62,424 nucleotides of DNA from Candidatus Nomurabacteria bacterium (lineage in GTDB: Bacteria; Patescibacteriota; Saccharimonadia; Saccharimonadales; Saccharimonadaceae), in contig JAITGI010000042.1 of NCBI GenBank assembly GCA_031280785.1, positions 1 to 62,424 on the forward strand, written 5' to 3'. Both the position numbers and the translations under genes were made by a program. A model generated the notes under the pieces. That model was given only the letters and a program-made list of their open reading frames with translations, had not been told where the DNA came from and ran no database searches. Shown here piece by piece: positions 2,272-59,349 of the stretch. The first letter of the stretch is position 1, and every line of letters begins with the position of its first letter.

Positions 2272-3452
2272 TATTCACGCTCTCCATAGGAATTACTTGG
2301 CAATTTTTCATCGCTATAATAATCGTACCACAACGGACGATAATTTTCCCATCTACGCGGACGCATATTTTTATCTGCAAAAATATTTTCCAAGAGTACT
2401 CGACTTTGAATATAATATTCCAGACCCCTGGCGTTTTCGGCGATAATTTTTGCCTGACCAGGTGTTTGAATTTGATAAATATTGACAACAGGAAAACGAG
2501 TAAGGCTATCTTTCAACTCCATGAAACCGTTACCTATTTCAAACACCTGATCAATGCCGGCAATATACGAAACCGTAGTCTGAATACCCTTTGATTTAGC
2601 TACATCAAGAGTTCTTTTTATGTCTTCAACGCTTATTAGTGATTTCGTTTTTACCAGCAAACTTTCACGTTTCGTAAAATTATCCAGCGCATAAACTAAC
2701 GCGAAATTATCAATTTGTGCCAGTTCGTCAAGCGCTTTTTCAGAGTTCACTTCACAACCAAAATACATCAACTCTCCGGTAAAACCACGCTTTTTTGCAG
2801 CGCAGTTCACAATTTTCATATGCTCAACAACATTTTCTTCGCCGCTAAATAAACCCGTAACTACCGCTATCTGTTTCAGCCCAGACACATCCAGTTTTCG
2901 ACTGTCAAAAAAATCTTGAACGTCACCCAGAGTCTTTAACGATAAATCGTCTTTAATAACAGTTTCGTCATACAGGTTTTTATAATTGTGGACACAGGCT
3001 TGACAGCCACCGCAATTACTGCGACTTCTACTATTCAGGTTTAACAAATTCGGACCGCGCTGATACGACGCCTCGCAAGTATCAAGCATTAGTTCGTCAG
3101 TCGTGCCAATCACGTCATTGCCAAAATACAGCTCGCCAAACACGGCGCTAAAATTCGTGTCTTCCGCTCCCCGAACTGGTAATGCATACCATGACTGGTT
3201 GCCGTCAAAAAACTTTCCTCTAAACCGAACCCGAAAATCCTGTCTGACTTCGTTATTCGGAAGACACAGTCCGCTCCGATTAAAGTCTATCATTGCGACT
3301 TCCGATGATCGGACACCATATCTCTCACTAATCTCACGCCAATAATCAACGTTTTGAGTCACCTCTATACCAAACTTATTATAATGCGGTCCTTTTTCAA
3401 GATTTACATTTTCCACATTGCTCCTTTCATGTTCATAATAAAAAGCGACCAC
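2271..3452 (-). CDS. radical-SAM-like Fe-S protein with non-canonical CX2CX2C motif
   Basis: 393-aa ORF. CGGCQAC sits at aa 147-153 (2994-3014), where radical SAM enzymes carry CX3CX2C. Downstream SGEE (GGE-like), IQTTVSYIAGI and YQIQTPG segments resemble the radical SAM TIM-barrel core. The start codon is uncertain (GTG at 3452 or an internal GTG after AAGGAG). Confidence 0.55.
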   Translation of the reverse strand: MVAFYYEHERSNVENVNLEKGPHYNKFGIEVTQNVDYWREISERYGVRSSEVAMIDFNRSGLCLPNNEVRQDFRVRFRGKFFDGNQSWYALPVRGAEDTNFSAVFGELYFGNDVIGTTDELMLDTCEASYQRGPNLLNLNSRSRSNCGGCQACVHNYKNLYDETVIKDDLSLKTLGDVQDFFDSRKLDVSGLKQIAVVTGLFSGEENVVEHMKIVNCAAKKRGFTGELMYFGCEVNSEKALDELAQIDNFALVYALDNFTKRESLLVKTKSLISVEDIKRTLDVAKSKGIQTTVSYIAGIDQVFEIGNGFMELKDSLTRFPVVNIYQIQTPGQAKIIAENARGLEYYIQSRVLLENIFADKNMRPRRWENYRPLWYDYYSDEKLPSNSYGERE

Positions 3453-3848: not shown

Positions 3849-5345
<1,497 letters not shown>

Positions 5346-5509
5346 TAGACGCCGAAGCGTCAAGATTGTTAGAAACTAACATAAAAGATGTTTCTGCTCC
5401 GGAATAAAAATCCCGAAACACTGACGAAATTGACTTGCACTACTAATTGTAAAAACTCATCTATTCACAGGGGCGTATTAAAACTACCTCGCAATAGACT
5501 GCGACTATC

Positions 5510-20128: not shown

Positions 20129-20659
20129 ATAGTTAACAAATCGGTCCGTATTAACGGAGAGATTCGGGCGACCGAACTGCGGGTTATCAGCGAGAGCGGT
20201 GAACAGCTTGGCGTTATGAGCCGAGTCGAAGCGCTTGCCAAAGCCGAGGACGCAGGGCTGGACTTGATTGAAATCTCGCCAAATGCGACGCCACCTGTTG
20301 CCAAGATTATTGACTGGGGAAAATACCAGTATCAAAAAGTCAAGGAGCAACAGCGTAACAAGCGAAGCGCGCGCGCCAGCGAAGTCAAACAAATGCGCCT
20401 GGGATTAAAAATCGGACGGAACGATCTGGAGATTAAACTGCGCAAAATCCGCGAGTTTCTGGGCGAAGGTAATAAGGTCAAAATCCAAGTGATTTACAGA
20501 GGTCGCGAAATGGCTCACCAAGAAGTCGGTCGCGAACTGATGAACCAAATTATCGAGCTGCTCGCAGAGGACGCGATAGTTGAGCAACAACCTCAGATGG
20601 CAGGTCGCAATCTGAGTATAGTAATAAGGAGTAATAATGCCAAAGTTAAAAACGCATAA
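20129..20659 (+). CDS. infC: translation initiation factor IF-3, non-AUG (ATA) start
   Basis: The in-frame extension upstream of ATG 20216 reads IVNKSVRINGEIRATELRVISESGEQLGV, the conserved IF-3 N-domain. AAGGAG (20116-20121) lies 7 nt before ATA 20129. Confidence 0.85.
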   Translation: MVNKSVRINGEIRATELRVISESGEQLGVMSRVEALAKAEDAGLDLIEISPNATPPVAKIIDWGKYQYQKVKEQQRNKRSARASEVKQMRLGLKIGRNDLEIKLRKIREFLGEGNKVKIQVIYRGREMAHQEVGRELMNQIIELLAEDAIVEQQPQMAGRNLSIVIRSNNAKVKNA

Positions 20660-28304: not shown

Positions 28305-28697
28305 TCAATTTATGTCAACCACCTTGCCAAGTTTCGTTATTTGAATAATTTTCCACCTATTCTTGTGATCGCGTGCGAATGTTTCGCAGATTTCTCTGAT
28401 ACGGTTGTCGTGAATTTTGCTCTTTGCACCGTTAATAACGATTGTCTTTGCCTGTTTGGATGCGCGACCCAGTTGAGTAGTTAGCTGATCGACTTTTGGC
28501 GAAACAATATTTTTTAACTCATAAAACTCCTCGTCAATCTGAAAATCTGGCGTTTTGACTTTGTATCTGTTGATTGGGCGCAGAATATTCACGACGGTTT
28601 TGTAATGCCGCGCCAAAATCCAGGCGGCGTCGATGTCTTTTTTGGGCGGTTTGTAGCCGTGCGGAATCAGCACGTCGATAGTTTTTCTTTTATTCAT
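28305..28697 (-). CDS. small PD-(D/E)xK (restriction-endonuclease-fold) motif protein
   Basis: 130 aa with KTPDFQIDEEFYELKNI (PD...ExK), followed by KQAKTIVING. The ATGA start/stop overlaps the 1539-aa gene. Confidence 0.5.
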   Translation of the reverse strand: MNKRKTIDVLIPHGYKPPKKDIDAAWILARHYKTVVNILRPINRYKVKTPDFQIDEEFYELKNIVSPKVDQLTTQLGRASKQAKTIVINGAKSKIHDNRIREICETFARDHKNRWKIIQITKLGKVVDIN

Positions 28698-31600
28698 ACC
28701 GAGGTAATTTTAGCACGTTTTTGTCGTAGCCTCCACACACTGAAGCACGCCAAAGCGGCGCATATAGTCGCCAATCCCGCGGCCAAAATCCCCACCGTCG
28801 CCGAAAATCCAGTGTTCGGCGCACCGGGCACGCCCGGCACGTCTGGTATCTTCTCCCAGCGCGCCACTAGGTGCAAGTCATTCGCCAAGACTGTATTAAA
28901 GTCCCACTCCACTCCCGTGTCCACACAGTCCAAGCCGTCCGCTCCCACGCTCACTCGGTCAAATGCGCCGCCGCTCGCTGGGCGCGCCAAAAACTTTTTG
29001 CTGACTGTGTCATAAAACCCGACCACCCCGTCACTTTCCCGCTCCATCGGCAGATAATTTGCCACCAGGTCGCCGCCTTGGTATATGCGGAAATTGTAAA
29101 CGTCAAAAGAAAACACATTCGCACCACTCATTACCACAGCACCGTTATTATTAAGCGCGCCCAGATAAAGGTCTAATGGCATATTCATCTGCCCATTTGT
29201 AAAATCAGCGGTCGCCGTCAACTGTTGACTACCATACCAGAAATCTCCCGCCTCTTGGCGAACCGTGACACGATCATTATTGGTAAAAAAGCCGCTCGGA
29301 TCAGCGCAACTGATGTTTTGATGAATACCGTAACTATGTGTACCAAAAGCAATTCGCAAATCACCGCACGTATATTGCAACAGGTCAAAATGATTCAGAT
29401 CAATACTTGAACGCGCACCGTAAATCACTGCGTTTTTGCTCGGGTCAGCATCATTAGTATTAAACCGATAATCCAGCACCACCTCCAAATCATCGCTGGT
29501 CTTGATTCCCGTATTCACCCAGTCCGCCCCCGTGAACTCCACGCTCTCGATCGTCTTGTAACCCTTCGGCGCGCAGTCGCCAACACACCAGCCCTTAAAA
29601 ACATAGCCGTCTCGGGTCGGGTCGCTGGGGCGGGTGGCACTGTCGCCGTGATAAACTGTTTGGCTCGCTACATTACTCCCGCCTGCGCTGTCAAAGATCG
29701 CGCTAAACTTCACTGCCGAGTAAGCAATGTCATAATTATTATACCCCCGCCGGAAAACCCCGTCTGGCGATGTTGACCACATATTATCCGGCACGCTGAT
29801 ATGGGCATTGTAGGTCGGCAAATCAGTGGGGGCGACATTGCTTTCATAATCGGCGGCGGTGTTGGCAGCGAAAGTCACCCCCGCGCCCACGTCCAATTGC
29901 GTCAACTGCAAATACGGCACGAAAACACCACCACCGTTCACACCGGCAATATTGTCGCGAATGACAGCAGAGCCAGAAATCTCCATCCTCCCGTTGCGGT
30001 CGTAAGGTTCGGTCAACTTGCCAATATCTGCGATTCCGCCACCATCAGTAACCGCTCTGTTTCGCGCAATCAGCCCGCCCGAAATCAATAGTTCATTTCC
30101 AAAATAGGCTGTGTCGTAGAACAAATAGGTCGAAATACCACCACCCTGTCCAGCGCTGTTATCGGTAATTTCGCCACCAGAAATCACAATCTTACCCTCA
30201 ACCGTGCCTTGTCTGATGCCGCCACCGGCGCCGGCTGCTGTGTTGTTGGTGATACGCCCGCCGGACATTTCCAGCCACGAACCATTGTCAACCACAATAC
30301 CGCCACCGTTCGTCCCCGCTGTGTTCCCATCAATCGTCACGTTATCGGAGATATATGTAAAGCCCTGATTGCCACCAACACTATTGCCGGTGATTATTCC
30401 ACCGCCCTGTCCGCCCGCGGTGTTATTGCTGATCGAAACATTATCCGAAATATTTAATACGTAAATAGCACCCATAGACGCAAGCCCGCCACCATTCCCG
30501 CCAGCGCTGTTACCACTGATAGAAAAATTATCGGAAATCGTGGTTGTCATTGTTACTAGCGGGTCAGTGCTACCACTCAAATAAAGTCCGCCGTAATTTC
30601 CACGTGCCATATTGCCGTTTATCTCCCCGTCGCCAGACAGTGTCACCGTCGTAAAACGACCGACGCTGACTCCGCCCACTGTTCCGGCGACTTTATTATT
30701 ATTGATCTTCACATTATCAGTAATCGTCAGGGTATTGCCCAGCGCCGCCATACCATTTGCCATGGAGAATCCGCCGTTGCCACCAGTAGTTACCGGTGTG
30801 GCACTGGGGTCAAGCAAATTATCGCCCGCTGCCATTTTGCCGGTTTCGTTATTGGACACCGATACAGAATCTTGCAAGCGCACGACCGACGGCGCGCCGA
30901 TAGACATACCGCCACCACCACCGTTTATCACTTGCCCGGACTTATTGCCATCCACTCTCGCATTGCCCGACATTAGCAGATCAATATTATTGCCAAAAAA
31001 AGCGCCGCCGTAATTACGCCCCGCCTGATTATTCATAATCTGCGCGTCGCCGCTAATTCTGACTTCATTCATATCAGTCGCCGACCGACCAGCGCCGACA
31101 TACAGCCCGCCACCGTCTTGCCGCGCTTTATTGCCGTTTATCTGGGCATTGTCACGAATAGTGACTGCAAGCAAATTACCGCCCACATACAGGCCGCCGC
31201 CATTCGCGGTCGCCGTATTATTGTTGACTTTGGCATTGTCGCGGATTGTTAATTGCGAGGGATCGGCAGCCGAGCCATTACCCATAGTGATACCGCCACC
31301 GTTGCCACCCACCGCTAGTGTTGCATTCGCGTCCAGCACATCCGCCCCGCCGGCCATCTCGCCGGCGCTATTGCCAGAGATTTCGGTGTTACCAGATAGC
31401 GTCAAACGTGAATTAGCATTCATTGCCACACCACCACCGTGCGTGTTCGCCTGATTATTCTTGATCGTAGTATCGTGAATCGTCAGGTCATAATAATCAA
31501 CCACCCACACCCCACCGCCGCGCCCCATTACAGTGTTATCGGAAATATTCGAATTTTCGATACGCACCTTTCTGAGCGCACCGGTCGCACCATTGGTCGT

Positions 31601-33313
31601 CAGTGACAGACCGCCCCCGTAATTGCTGGTGGTGACAGTGTTACCGGTCAGCGTTACATTGCTGATAGTTAGGTCTTTGGCAAGATTCGAGATATTTACT
31701 CCACTATGACCGGTAGCCGATTGGTTGCCTGTCGCAGTAATATTGTTGACTGCGGTCAAACTGCCCATATTGGTCAGACCAAACCCGCCAACCTGTGCGT
31801 TAGAGGTGTTATCGGTTACGACAATATCACTCACTGTCGCGATATTCGCGCCGTCAATACGTGCGCCACCATAGTTGCCTGTCGCAAAGTTATCACTAAT
31901 CGTCAAATTACTAACGCTGGTCAGCCCCGCACTGGTAACATATGCGCCGCCATAAGCACCAGTTGAACTGTTATTACTGATGATATTGTCCTCAAACTTG
32001 GTCAGATACGCCGAGTTAATATACACTCCGCCGCCACTGCTACCGGTTGCGCCCGAATCAAAAACCTGATTGCCGTCAAAGGTCACGCCCGATATTTTGG
32101 CGTCCGAGCCTGCCACACCACTACTTAGATATAGTCCACCCCCTATTCCAGTTTTGCCACTACCTCCGGGCTGAACCTTATTGCCGGAAATCGTGCCGCC
32201 GGTGATATTCACACTGCGATAGCCCTCAATTCGGATTCCGCCGCCGCCACTATTGGTATTCACGCCACCGGCGATATTATTAGAAATCGTGCCGCCACTC
32301 ATCGTAAAGTCTATGGCATTTCCATTAGCATAAATAGCGCCGCCATTGAGGCTGGCACTATTACTGCTGATATTACCACCGGAAATATTTATATCAGCAT
32401 AGTTACCTATATAGATAGCGCCGCCGTTGCCATTAATCGTGCTACTGCCAGCCGTGTTACCGATAATCTCGCCGCCGGTGATATTCAGTGCCGCCCGATA
32501 GGTGGCGTTGCTAGCAATATAAATCGCGCCGCCGTTGGTTACGGCGATATTACCCTGACCTGGTGCGCTGCTACCGATCGTGCCGCCAGAGAAATTAAAC
32601 TGCACATTATTTTCCAAGCGCATTGCCCCACCGACACCACCGGAAACATTGCCGTAAATCTCGCCACCGGTCATATTTATCACTACTGGCGTGGCGGTGC
32701 TGCCATTAGCGGTTATCGCTCCTGGGCTACCAGTTCCCGCATCATTATTCCTAATGATACTGCCCGGTTTGACATTTATCATCGCCCCACTAGTGCCACT
32801 TATCACACCCGAACCGGCACCGGTATTGGTCTGACCTTGAATAATCGTCCCGCTGTCAAGGTTGAGCGTGCCGCCTTGCGCCGACAGTATTGGGCTATTG
32901 CCATTGGCGGCAGTGCCGTTGATGATGATGTCGTGCAGGGTCAGCGACGCAGCAGCCGCCACCGTGATGATATTATTGGTCGGTGCCGTGCGATTGAGCG
33001 TCGCATTCGCAGGGTCGGCTGAGGTAATGATAATGTTTTTGTTGGCGGCAATCGTGATGATACCATTAAAATCAATACTATTCTGAATTGTAATCGTCGT
33101 CGTGTCACTATTTCCCGCCGTCGCATTGGCGCTGGCAATGCAGTTGACGATGTCGGTCTGTGTCGTGGCGCTGCACGGCGTGTCGGCGGCGCGAATTGTT
33201 GTAGGTTTAACAACAAGAAACACTCCGGCAATAGATGCTATACACATCAACAGCGCCGGCAACGCCAGAAACCCCCAGCGATTTATCTTGGTTTTACTCT
33301 GAAAACTGTGCAA
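28694..33313 (-). CDS. giant (1539 aa) parallel beta-helix surface protein / putative adhesin with an APNTG sorting signal
   Basis: TTG start preceded by AAGGA. Signal/TM WGFLALPALLMCIASIAGVFLVV. Many tandem degenerate repeats with GGAIY/GGGLY/NGGG motifs (Pmp/PbH1-like). C-terminal GYVFKGW Listeria-Bacteroides-type repeat, then GAPNTG, a TM segment and RLRQKRAK. Confidence 0.85.
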   Translation of the reverse strand: MHSFQSKTKINRWGFLALPALLMCIASIAGVFLVVKPTTIRAADTPCSATTQTDIVNCIASANATAGNSDTTTITIQNSIDFNGIITIAANKNIIITSADPANATLNRTAPTNNIITVAAAASLTLHDIIINGTAANGNSPILSAQGGTLNLDSGTIIQGQTNTGAGSGVISGTSGAMINVKPGSIIRNNDAGTGSPGAITANGSTATPVVINMTGGEIYGNVSGGVGGAMRLENNVQFNFSGGTIGSSAPGQGNIAVTNGGAIYIASNATYRAALNITGGEIIGNTAGSSTINGNGGAIYIGNYADINISGGNISSNSASLNGGAIYANGNAIDFTMSGGTISNNIAGGVNTNSGGGGIRIEGYRSVNITGGTISGNKVQPGGSGKTGIGGGLYLSSGVAGSDAKISGVTFDGNQVFDSGATGSSGGGVYINSAYLTKFEDNIISNNSSTGAYGGAYVTSAGLTSVSNLTISDNFATGNYGGARIDGANIATVSDIVVTDNTSNAQVGGFGLTNMGSLTAVNNITATGNQSATGHSGVNISNLAKDLTISNVTLTGNTVTTSNYGGGLSLTTNGATGALRKVRIENSNISDNTVMGRGGGVWVVDYYDLTIHDTTIKNNQANTHGGGVAMNANSRLTLSGNTEISGNSAGEMAGGADVLDANATLAVGGNGGGITMGNGSAADPSQLTIRDNAKVNNNTATANGGGLYVGGNLLAVTIRDNAQINGNKARQDGGGLYVGAGRSATDMNEVRISGDAQIMNNQAGRNYGGAFFGNNIDLLMSGNARVDGNKSGQVINGGGGGMSIGAPSVVRLQDSVSVSNNETGKMAAGDNLLDPSATPVTTGGNGGFSMANGMAALGNTLTITDNVKINNNKVAGTVGGVSVGRFTTVTLSGDGEINGNMARGNYGGLYLSGSTDPLVTMTTTISDNFSISGNSAGGNGGGLASMGAIYVLNISDNVSISNNTAGGQGGGIITGNSVGGNQGFTYISDNVTIDGNTAGTNGGGIVVDNGSWLEMSGGRITNNTAAGAGGGIRQGTVEGKIVISGGEITDNSAGQGGGISTYLFYDTAYFGNELLISGGLIARNRAVTDGGGIADIGKLTEPYDRNGRMEISGSAVIRDNIAGVNGGGVFVPYLQLTQLDVGAGVTFAANTAADYESNVAPTDLPTYNAHISVPDNMWSTSPDGVFRRGYNNYDIAYSAVKFSAIFDSAGGSNVASQTVYHGDSATRPSDPTRDGYVFKGWCVGDCAPKGYKTIESVEFTGADWVNTGIKTSDDLEVVLDYRFNTNDADPSKNAVIYGARSSIDLNHFDLLQYTCGDLRIAFGTHSYGIHQNISCADPSGFFTNNDRVTVRQEAGDFWYGSQQLTATADFTNGQMNMPLDLYLGALNNNGAVVMSGANVFSFDVYNFRIYQGGDLVANYLPMERESDGVVGFYDTVSKKFLARPASGGAFDRVSVGADGLDCVDTGVEWDFNTVLANDLHLVARWEKIPDVPGVPGAPNTGFSATVGILAAGLATICAALACFSVWRLRQKRAKITSV

Positions 33314-33342
33314 TTTGTTGTCCTTGTTACTATTACATAACC

Positions 33343-33370
33343 ATTATACGCCCCCCCCCGCAGTTTGCAA
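33343..33370 (-). promoter_or_regulatory. promoter of the giant adhesin gene with a G9 tract in the spacer
   Basis: Minus strand TTGCAA (33365-33370), 16 nt containing G9 (33351-33359), TATAAT (33343-33348). Confidence 0.6.
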
Positions 33371-33374
33371 GCCC

Positions 33375-33403
33375 TTGCGGCGCGCTGAGTTTTTTGCTAA
33401 AAT
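33375..33403 (+). promoter_or_regulatory. promoter of tRNA-Val(GAC)
   Basis: TTGCGG (33375-33380), 17 nt, TGcTAAAAT extended -10 (33398-33403). Confidence 0.55.
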
Positions 33404-33417
33404 ATGCAAGCAGTCGC

Positions 33418-33494
33418 GGGTTGTTAGCTCAGTTGGCTAGAGCGCTTCCTTGACGTGGAAGAGGTCGGGGATTCGAATTCCTCACAACCCACCA
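33418..33494 (+). tRNA. tRNA-Val (anticodon GAC), CCA encoded
   Basis: GGGTTGT/ACAACCC acceptor stem, anticodon arm CTTCC-TTGACGT-GGAAG, T-loop TTCGAAT. Confidence 0.92.
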
Positions 33495-33506
33495 GATTTT
33501 ATCAGA

Positions 33507-33537
33507 AAGCCCGAGACGCGACCTCGGGTGTTTTTAT
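33507..33537 (+). terminator. rho-independent terminator after tRNA-Val
   Basis: CCCGAG-acgcgac-CTCGGG followed by TGTTTTTATTT. Confidence 0.7.
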
Positions 33538-33560
33538 TTGGCAGTCATCGACAATGACCG

Positions 33561-34121
33561 CTATTTTGCGCCAAATAATTTTTCGCGGATTTGCCGGTAA
33601 AAATCCTCTGGGTCGCCCGAGTTATCGAGATGAATATCAGCCAAATCACGAATCGCCGCGACATTATAATCCGCCTCGCCAGCACCGGCTTGACGTTCAT
33701 TCTCGTCCAACTGCATGAATTCCTCGAAAGTCTTCTGGCTTTCGGCATCACGGGCACGACCTTTCATGCGCCGGTAACGCACGGTCGGATCAGCGTCAAC
33801 GAAAACTATCACGCCGCCGGCTTTTTTGACCGCCCGAGCCTCGCCAAGTGCGCGAATACCGTCGACCACAATCGGACGCTGCCCGCCGTCCAATGCCAAA
33901 TCGACGAATACGCCGGCGCCCTTTGCCTGGCGATATGCCGGCGCGACTTTCTGCAAAGTCTCGCGCTCGATGTTGCCGAACTGTTTCATCGCCTCGGCGC
34001 GCACCATGTCGCCGGTCGAAACATGCACATAACCGAAATTTTTTACCAGATATCCGCCGAGGGTATTCTTGCCGCTGGCATTTGTGCCAGCCACGCCGAT
34101 TACCTCTGGCGTCCGGGTCAT
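33561..34121 (-). CDS. P-loop nucleoside/nucleotide kinase-like protein
   Basis: [13 protein letters not shown] Walker A with an NMP-kinase-like layout. Confidence 0.6.
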
Positions 34122-58941: not shown

Positions 58942-59349
58942 TCAATCTTCGGCGCTGATGAGCGGTAACTTTATTACGTTTTCCGCTCCGGTTATTCGCT
59001 TTTTGACAGCCTGGCATTCCGCAGACTGCTCTAAAGCGATCTTAAGATCCGCTTTATACGCATCCGATTTGCGTTCATACCACCTCCCGTCGTTAGACGG
59101 GAAACAATACTTCCTGGTTCTGCTAGGTGCGCCGAACGCGGCGCTCCCGAACACGGACATCATCCTGGAATATTCCGCTATCGCGGCCATGTTGTCCGTT
59201 ACGGCGGCCTGCGCCGCCGCTTCCGACTCGTATATTGCCAATGGCTGAGCATACTTATTGAGCATGCTCTGCTCCGCCGCTACAGAAAATACGTACTTCG
59301 CCTTCGCCTTCGCCTTCGCCTTCGCCTTCGCCTTCGTATTCTTTTTCAT
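58942..59349 (-). CDS. hypothetical protein with an N-terminal (Lys-Ala)6 repeat
   Basis: Start ATG 59349 follows AAGGAGAAAAA. The protein begins MKKNTKAKAKAKAKAKAKYVF. Confidence 0.6.
   Translation of the reverse strand: MKKNTKAKAKAKAKAKAKYVFSVAAEQSMLNKYAQPLAIYESEAAAQAAVTDNMAAIAEYSRMMSVFGSAAFGAPSRTRKYCFPSNDGRWYERKSDAYKADLKIALEQSAECQAVKKRITGAENVIKLPLISAED
59296..59336. repeat. hexanucleotide tandem repeat (CCTTCG)n, ~6.5 units, in frame
   Basis: Read directly from the sequence. It encodes the KA repeat of the 58942-59349 gene. Confidence 0.9.

Follow-up and report, generated by a model that had tools for sequence, protein, structure and literature searches.

Introduction

Can an ultrasmall bacterium that lives on other bacteria vary the expression of a large surface protein through a slippage-prone homopolymer in its promoter? 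The question is raised by a run of nine guanines (G9) lying between the two predicted promoter hexamers of a gene for a 1539-aa surface protein, here called the adhesin, in a Saccharibacteria contig of 62,424 nucleotides. The whole contig was analysed and is referred to as the window. An earlier note on this DNA had proposed that the run is a candidate phase- or level-variation switch. Saccharibacteria live attached to host bacteria. The proteins that mediate attachment, and the control of host range and of the transition from a parasitic to a stable state, are open questions in this field.

In Neisseria, the tracts of porA, fetA and opc are located between the -10 and -35 elements (PMC2791445). 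Deep sequencing of meningococci has shown most homopolymers of 8 nt or more to be variable, with G/C tracts making up the bulk of the strong candidates (PMC5084427). Intragenic poly-G tracts reportedly act as frameshift switches in Campylobacter, in Neisseria hmbR/hpuA and in other cases (PMC8355987, PMC3786947). Full-text literature searches found no report of SSR-mediated phase variation in Saccharibacteria, Patescibacteria or the candidate phyla radiation, which agrees with the earlier note, to whose author no such description was known; among the papers listed, the subjects included homopolymer errors of nanopore sequencing and a hypervariable repeat gene of a Gracilibacterium. SSR switches as a kind are well known, and it is apparently the phylum and the epibiotic setting that would be new.

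Results

Nine guanines occupy the predicted promoter spacer of the adhesin gene

The adhesin gene and a tRNA-Val gene are divergently oriented, with 104 nt from the tRNA-Val gene to the TTG start codon of the adhesin. The features of this region are as follows.

28694..33313, minus strand: ORF of the 1539-aa surface protein (adhesin), TTG start, with PF13229 and PF09479
33321..33325, minus strand: Shine-Dalgarno sequence AAGGA, 7 nt before the TTG (strand reading)
33343..33348, minus strand: -10 hexamer TATAAT of the predicted adhesin promoter, sole -10-like hexamer on the minus strand of the gap
33349..33364, minus strand: 16-nt spacer ACTGCGGGGGGGGGCG, without a TGn extended -10 (strand reading)
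33351..33359, minus strand: G9 homopolymer (C9 on the plus strand), candidate hypermutable tract, identical in the Logan assembly (L083)
33365..33370, minus strand: -35 hexamer TTGCAA of the predicted adhesin promoter (promoter scan)
33375..33403, plus strand: tRNA-Val promoter TTGCGG-17-TGcTAAAAT
33418..33494, plus strand: tRNA-Val(GAC) (RNA gene prediction)
33509..33529, both directions: terminator-like hairpin with a T-run, between the tRNA-Val and kinase genes (terminator scan)

The TTGCAA/TATAAT pair, with its 16-nt spacer, scores 10/12 against the consensus in the promoter scan, and nine of the 16 spacer nucleotides belong to G9, a length above the ~8 nt that we took as the minimum for a homopolymer between hexamers. 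The earlier note had given this anatomy (TTGCAA at 33365-33370, 16 nt, TATAAT at 33343-33348, with nine of the 16 spacer nucleotides forming C9 of the plus strand at 33351-33359), and reading both strands reproduces every coordinate. Its description of the gene itself, a minus-strand ORF of 1539 aa with a TTG start at 33313 and an AAGGA Shine-Dalgarno sequence, is borne out by the ORF at 28694-33313 and by the NCBI and JGI gene calls. Both calls start at this TTG, and their products (P0001 and P0121) differ solely in how residue 1 is written.

On the minus strand of the 104-nt gap, the perfect TATAAT (33348-33343) stands 30 nt from the start codon. From its position, transcription is inferred to begin near 33336. 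The AAGGA lies ~17 nt downstream of TATAAT and is followed by the TTG codon at 33313-33311, and the predicted 5' leader is ~23 nt and unstructured. Apart from the tRNA, no Rfam family was detected in the promoter region, nor was any leader structure.

The divergent promoter reported in the earlier note at 33375-33403 is indeed found upstream of tRNA-Val, with TTGCGG at 33375-33380, a 17-nt spacer and TGcTAAAAT at 33395-33403. The -35 boxes of the two promoters are 4 bp apart. The G9 tract is upstream of the tRNA-Val -35 box, and the 17-nt geometry of the tRNA-Val promoter is independent of tract length. On the far side of the tRNA gene, the hairpin at 33509-33529 is predicted to insulate the adhesin from the upstream rpoD-kinase operon.

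The predicted adhesin promoter lacks an extended -10 and has a used spacer length

Seven of the eight stable-RNA promoters of the contig carry an extended -10 (TGnTAnAAT or TGnTATACT), often with a poor -35. They lie upstream of the following genes.

16601: tmRNA
33398 and 44655: tRNA-Val
53709: tRNA-Gly
56984: tRNA-Thr
57114: tRNA-Asp
58851: tRNA-Lys

In combining an extended -10 with a weak -35 at its stable-RNA genes, this Saccharibacterium follows a Gram-positive-like promoter grammar. At the adhesin promoter the sequence is gcgTATAAT, without TGn. In sigma-70 promoter logic, a promoter without an extended -10 relies on its -35 box and on spacer length. Because the TGn is absent, transcription of the adhesin should depend on the -35/-10 spacing.

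When TTGnnn/TAnnnT pairs were counted across the contig, 2 sites had a spacer of 15 nt, 11 of 16 nt, 15 of 17 nt, 6 of 18 nt, 5 of 19 nt and 8 of 20 nt, against ~3 expected per class; spacers of 16 and 17 nt are the used classes. Since 16-nt spacers are enriched almost like 17-nt ones, the assembled G9 allele is probably an expressed state already and not a sub-optimal one, and a change from 16 to 17 nt might alter expression little, both spacers looking usable. The earlier note had held that one extra G would give the optimal 17-nt spacer. The 17-nt class is indeed the most frequent, but the 16-nt class nearly equals it, so that this claim stands only in part.

The tract is the longest G/C run of the contig and a genuine consensus

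G9 is the longest G/C run in the 62,424 bases, and no other run reaches 8. The one other G/C run of 7 or more is a C7 at 4193, within the 16S rRNA gene. The number of G/C runs of 9 or more expected in the contig is 0.22 under a Markov-1 model and 0.47 under an iid model, compared with 1 observed, which for 62 kb is no more than 2-5-fold above chance. Given this rarity and an intergenic share of ~9.7% of the contig, a run of this length falling inside a good promoter spacer by chance is unlikely, with the qualification that the site was picked post hoc.

The organism was found in a single public run, SRR14710902, and a literature search for this accession returned no paper. The Logan assembly of this run contains a contig (L083, 2,960 bp) that covers the 3' end of rpoD, the kinase gene, tRNA-Val, the promoter and adhesin codons 1-605. 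It passes through the tract unbroken and matches the window exactly over 33250-33620, G9 included. The agreement of the two assemblies on G9 indicates that the tract is a genuine consensus sequence and no assembly artefact; as both derive from the same run, their agreement concerns the consensus and leaves minor alleles unaddressed.

Long G/C runs are depleted in Saccharibacteria DNA

To place the tract against its background, G/C runs were counted in a Saccharibacteria census made up of the window and 47 further loci (L001-L047), 883 kb in all, with expectations from a Markov-1 model. There were 17 runs of 7 or more (86 expected), 4 of 8 or more (25 expected) and 3 of 9 or more (7.7 expected). 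Long G/C runs are therefore 5-6-fold depleted in this DNA. The length distribution appears bimodal, with one run of exactly 8 and three of 9-12.

All three runs of 9 or more touch predicted surface-protein genes, namely the adhesin promoter, a G10 in L034 and a G12 in L020. Such a distribution is consistent with the removal of long G/C runs wherever switching brings no benefit, the association with surface genes consisting of three cases found post hoc.

L034 (JAFWIF010000036.1, site 20309-20360) comes from the sheep-ileum Saccharibacteria MAG RGIG5763. Its G10 lies 30 nt after an ATG that is preceded by GGGAG, and in the assembly a stop closes the frame after 15 codons. With G9 or G12, the same start would open a long ORF with an RRKK plus hydrophobic, signal-like N-terminus and a conserved surface-protein domain; an alternative start codon is first met within the hydrophobic core. 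The tract resembles an intragenic poly-G phase switch assembled in its OFF state; it could also be a homopolymer sequencing error. Homologs of the L034 N-terminus were considered as a tract-length series and set aside, being Firmicutes-like (L086 has a spore-former context) and without the tract.

L020 (JAFRJG010000017.1) is from the goat-jejunum Saccharibacteria MAG RGIG2520. The G12, at 2-13, is in the distal part of a type-IV-pilin-like ORF with the N-terminus GDTLVEVLFAVAIFGMV. It is C12 on the coding strand, where it reads ...NTPPP, and it stands at the edge of the fetched locus and not at a contig end. The L020 locus also has six G7 runs, the most of any locus.

A comparable arrangement is seen in a relative of the adhesin itself. 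L085 (JGI Ga0466707_174778) encodes P0003, the third-best-scoring adhesin homolog, and within the region 2717-3001 a G8 at 2857-2864 splits a 52-aa signal-peptide ORF from a 1466-aa beta-helix/Flg_new body, whose start is called at a TTG at 3001. At G9 or G6, a single ORF of ~1560 codons (1561 at G9) would result. L085 was not retained as a Saccharibacteria case, as P0003 and P0028 have similar C-terminal tails, of a type that we take to be associated with Firmicutes surface proteins. Judged by this tail, the organism is probably a Firmicute, and the locus is kept as a family-level parallel.

In other Patescibacteria, a G10 lies ~250 nt upstream of the gene for a 1535-aa signal-peptide protein (L064:14017), and a G9 lies directly upstream of the start codon of a putative reverse-transcriptase-like ORF, as read from its N-terminal sequence (L079:7958).

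The gene product is a predicted beta-helix surface protein

The N-terminus of the adhesin is basic and then hydrophobic, resembling a signal peptide. The body is a long right-handed beta-helix with GGAIY-type repeats and three PF13229 stretches (38.2 bits, cut-off 25.9); the beta-helix repeat is thus supported by a profile match, and the adhesive role is predicted. The protein also carries the Flg_new/InlB B-repeat (PF09479). The C-terminus consists of APNTG, a hydrophobic segment and the basic tail RLRQKRAK, and looks like a sortase sorting signal. No LPXTG-anchor model of NCBIfam matched it at E up to 0.1, and membership of the LPXTG sortase-anchored proteins was rejected, as the motif is APNTG and not LPXTG and no curated model matches. 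The annotations of homologs name outer-membrane repeat or InlB B-repeat proteins, and PF02415 (Chlam_PMP) is among their domains. Taken together, the predicted signal segment, the beta-helix, Flg_new and the C-terminal hydrophobic anchor are those of a surface-exposed product.

Searches for an exact-product record found none, and 5.8 billion clustered proteins contained no close ortholog of the adhesin, the best match being P0002 with 46% identity over 41% of the query. PDB sequence searches with the adhesin and with the downstream ORF described below gave no match. A search with the C-terminal 399 aa returned no homolog at E up to 1e-8; it also missed the parent P0001 and P0002 and is hence uninformative.

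Immediately downstream lies a second gene that may share the promoter.

28305..28697, minus strand: 130-aa ORF, CdiA_C-like (PF18451, 33.5 bits, cut-off 26.6)

The ATG of this ORF overlaps the adhesin stop codon (ATGA). From this overlap, the ORF is probably co-transcribed with the adhesin and would hence be under the adhesin promoter. It does not qualify as a CdiA-CT toxin, being free-standing, with no immunity ORF following and with thrS 18 nt further on. Neither PDB nor NCBIfam searches lent support to the CdiA_C-like assignment. The thrS gene has its own promoter, TTGACA-17-TATAGT.

The locus belongs to the core chromosome, and no close relative was found

The window is core chromosome, with 16S rRNA, gyrB/gyrA, tmRNA, RNase P RNA, miaA and thrS as well as rpoD, dnaG, argS, pyrG and uvrC. 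A horizontally acquired island was considered and rejected, the G+C and skew of the adhesin region being the same as those of the flanks. The assignment of the organism to Saccharibacteria (TM7), taken for granted in the earlier note, is upheld by its RpoD, which is 70-80% identical to that of Saccharibacteria MAGs and less so to that of other Patescibacteria. No species-level relative was found in the genome collection. Among the window ORFs scanned against Pfam, none matched the MutS/MutL families.

An RpoD-based genome scan gave 47 Saccharibacteria loci (at most 80% identity), none of which has tRNA-Val or an adhesin downstream of rpoD, and the kinase is 38% identical or less. Because none of these loci shares the arrangement, a synteny-based comparison of the promoter is impossible. 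Nor did the adjacent kinase lead to a close relative when metagenomes were scanned with it. For P0002, the best homolog, the contig starts 11 nt ahead of the gene and shows no promoter.

Discussion

A candidate transcriptional contingency locus

By analogy with known systems, the G9 of the adhesin promoter is a candidate contingency locus of the porA/opc type, a reading that we think could equally well prove right or wrong. In this scheme, slipped-strand mispairing at G9 during replication would give rise to G8 and G10 variants, a behaviour established for tracts of this sort (PMC5084427). The spacer would be 15 nt with G8, 16 nt with G9, 17 nt with G10 and 18 nt with G11, and with no extended -10 to compensate, each change of length would raise or lower transcription heritably and reversibly. 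G10 may be similar to G9 or stronger, while alleles of G8 or shorter and of G11 or longer would be progressively weaker. Such changes would affect two genes, the one for the 1539-aa beta-helix surface protein and the CdiA_C-like ORF that overlaps it. The cells of a population would then differ in how much of a strain-specific attachment protein they make, and both this variation and any adaptive value are presumed.

A broader proposal is that Saccharibacteria, and perhaps Patescibacteria, keep a few hypermutable poly-G contingency loci amid genome-wide homopolymer avoidance and thereby vary their host-attachment proteins stochastically. These loci would have a transcriptional member (the adhesin promoter) and translational ones (L034 G10 and L020 G12), and would serve as bet-hedging in an obligately epibiotic life that depends on finding bacterial hosts, holding on to them and changing between them; the adhesin switch would also govern the co-transcribed CdiA_C-like toxin domain. 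We offer this proposal tentatively and are inclined to doubt it as a whole.

Alternative explanations

The main alternative to a switch is that the tract is static, a product of chance or drift in non-coding DNA that mutates too rarely to matter and has no selected regulatory role, with the adhesin transcribed constitutively from the G9 promoter or from another. It holds this place because the chance expectation is non-negligible and no polymorphism was seen in the two assemblies, and it is a sizeable possibility, albeit one short of even. With 0.22-0.47 runs of 9 or more expected in the window, a single one is not extraordinary; G9 is present in both assemblies of SRR14710902; the searches yielded no ortholog or conspecific genome for comparison; and tracts that are avoided in general survive most easily in intergenic DNA. 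Yet long G/C runs are 5-6-fold depleted over 883 kb, and this one falls within a spacer of ~16 nt whose function is critical. The remaining runs of 9 or more likewise occur at predicted surface-protein genes, one of them in a frame-switching position, and G9 tracts are by nature prone to slippage in all bacteria examined (PMC5084427), which speaks against a tract at rest. A different possibility is that the length of the tract matters and is fixed: a rigid G·C block might tune promoter strength, insulate the adhesin from the tRNA-Val promoter or bind a protein, and a change of length would be deleterious and not exploited. The crowded geometry lends this some force, as the -35 boxes are 4 bp apart in the near-palindrome GCAAG-CC-CTTGC, where polymerase competition is likely, and the tract covers -52 to -60 of the tRNA promoter. 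We nevertheless judge it improbable, since no binding motif or regulator could be identified, UP elements are A/T-rich and not C-rich, and a perfect homopolymer is unnecessary for a fixed length (an interrupted tract with the length and G+C content of G9 would be, e.g., GGGCGGAGG) and is mutationally costly.

It is very improbable that the promoter itself is mis-assigned, with transcription starting at another site or depending on a different sigma factor and no critical spacing set by the tract. Just 104 nt are free, and they contain a perfect TATAAT and a TTGnnn at an enriched spacing, while the terminator would stop read-through from upstream; on the other hand, the assignment, start site included, is a sequence prediction, and most strong promoters in the contig use the extended -10 that is absent here. 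An error of sequencing or assembly, such as poly-G noise, has next to no credibility even though homopolymers are error-prone on several sequencing platforms (PMC9600527), given that the tract is internal, its flanks are unique and two independent assemblies are identical base for base across 370 nt.

Comparison with known switches

As the earlier note recognised for porA and opc, the layout is shared with Neisseria: porA (poly-G) and opc/fetA (poly-C), like the adhesin promoter, have a G/C run between -35 and -10 of a surface-protein gene, and the tract lengths are in the same range (9-14). In these Neisseria genes, slippage by a unit changes the spacer and yields graded expression (high, medium or none) (PMC2791445). 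The differences lie in the organism and in the product. The present bacterium, unlike Neisseria, belongs to the Patescibacteria and has extended -10 promoters of a Gram-positive-like type, and the product, instead of an outer-membrane porin, is a beta-helix protein whose C-terminus resembles a sortase signal. Moreover, SSRs are avoided in Saccharibacteria DNA whereas they are in excess in Neisseria (PMC5084427).

In Haemophilus influenzae hifA/hifB, a (TA)n repeat reportedly lies, as does G9 at the adhesin locus, in the promoter spacer of a compact divergent region that serves an adhesive structure (PMC2791445, reference 30). The hif repeat is a dinucleotide common to both overlapping promoters, so that both genes switch together; G9, in contrast, is confined to the spacer of the adhesin promoter and leaves the 17 nt of the tRNA-Val promoter unchanged. 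The intragenic poly-G design is followed by L034 G10 and L085 G8, which lie just after or within a signal peptide. Unlike these, the adhesin G9 precedes the predicted start site; its action would be on transcription, and a change in its length would leave the frame intact.

Two further systems vary surface proteins through the promoter region. The vlp genes of Mycoplasma hyorhinis have poly-A promoter tracts whose length sets the transcription of surface-protein genes. In Bordetella pertussis, a poly-C tract of fim lies between the site of the activator BvgA and the -10 box, and Bordetella homopolymeric tracts are reportedly the subject of one published study. Like the adhesin tract, those of vlp and fim are promoter-region homopolymers of surface-protein genes in host-dependent bacteria. 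They differ from it in that the vlp tract is poly-A and the fim tract is not between -35 and -10; in addition, vlp and fim are each part of a multi-gene family, unlike the single locus observed in the present case.

If the switch reading is true, a slippage dial on a large strain-specific adhesin would be a testable source of cell-to-cell heterogeneity in attachment, and contingency loci would extend from classical mucosal pathogens to ultrasmall Patescibacteria. In addition, as L034 and L085 illustrate, poly-G tracts are worth checking before surface genes in MAGs are labelled pseudogenes.

Other observations in the window

A complete 16S rRNA gene is present at 3850-5346 on the minus strand, with no 23S or 5S rRNA gene in the 3.8 kb downstream or elsewhere in the 62-kb contig; the rRNA genes appear to be unlinked. 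At 59296-59336, also on the minus strand, there is a perfect repeat made up of 6.8 copies of the hexanucleotide GCGAAG (coding-strand sequence). It encodes (KA)7, residues 6-19 of a small ORF (MKKNTKAKAKAKAKAKAKYVF...), and the copy number of this in-frame SSR could vary.
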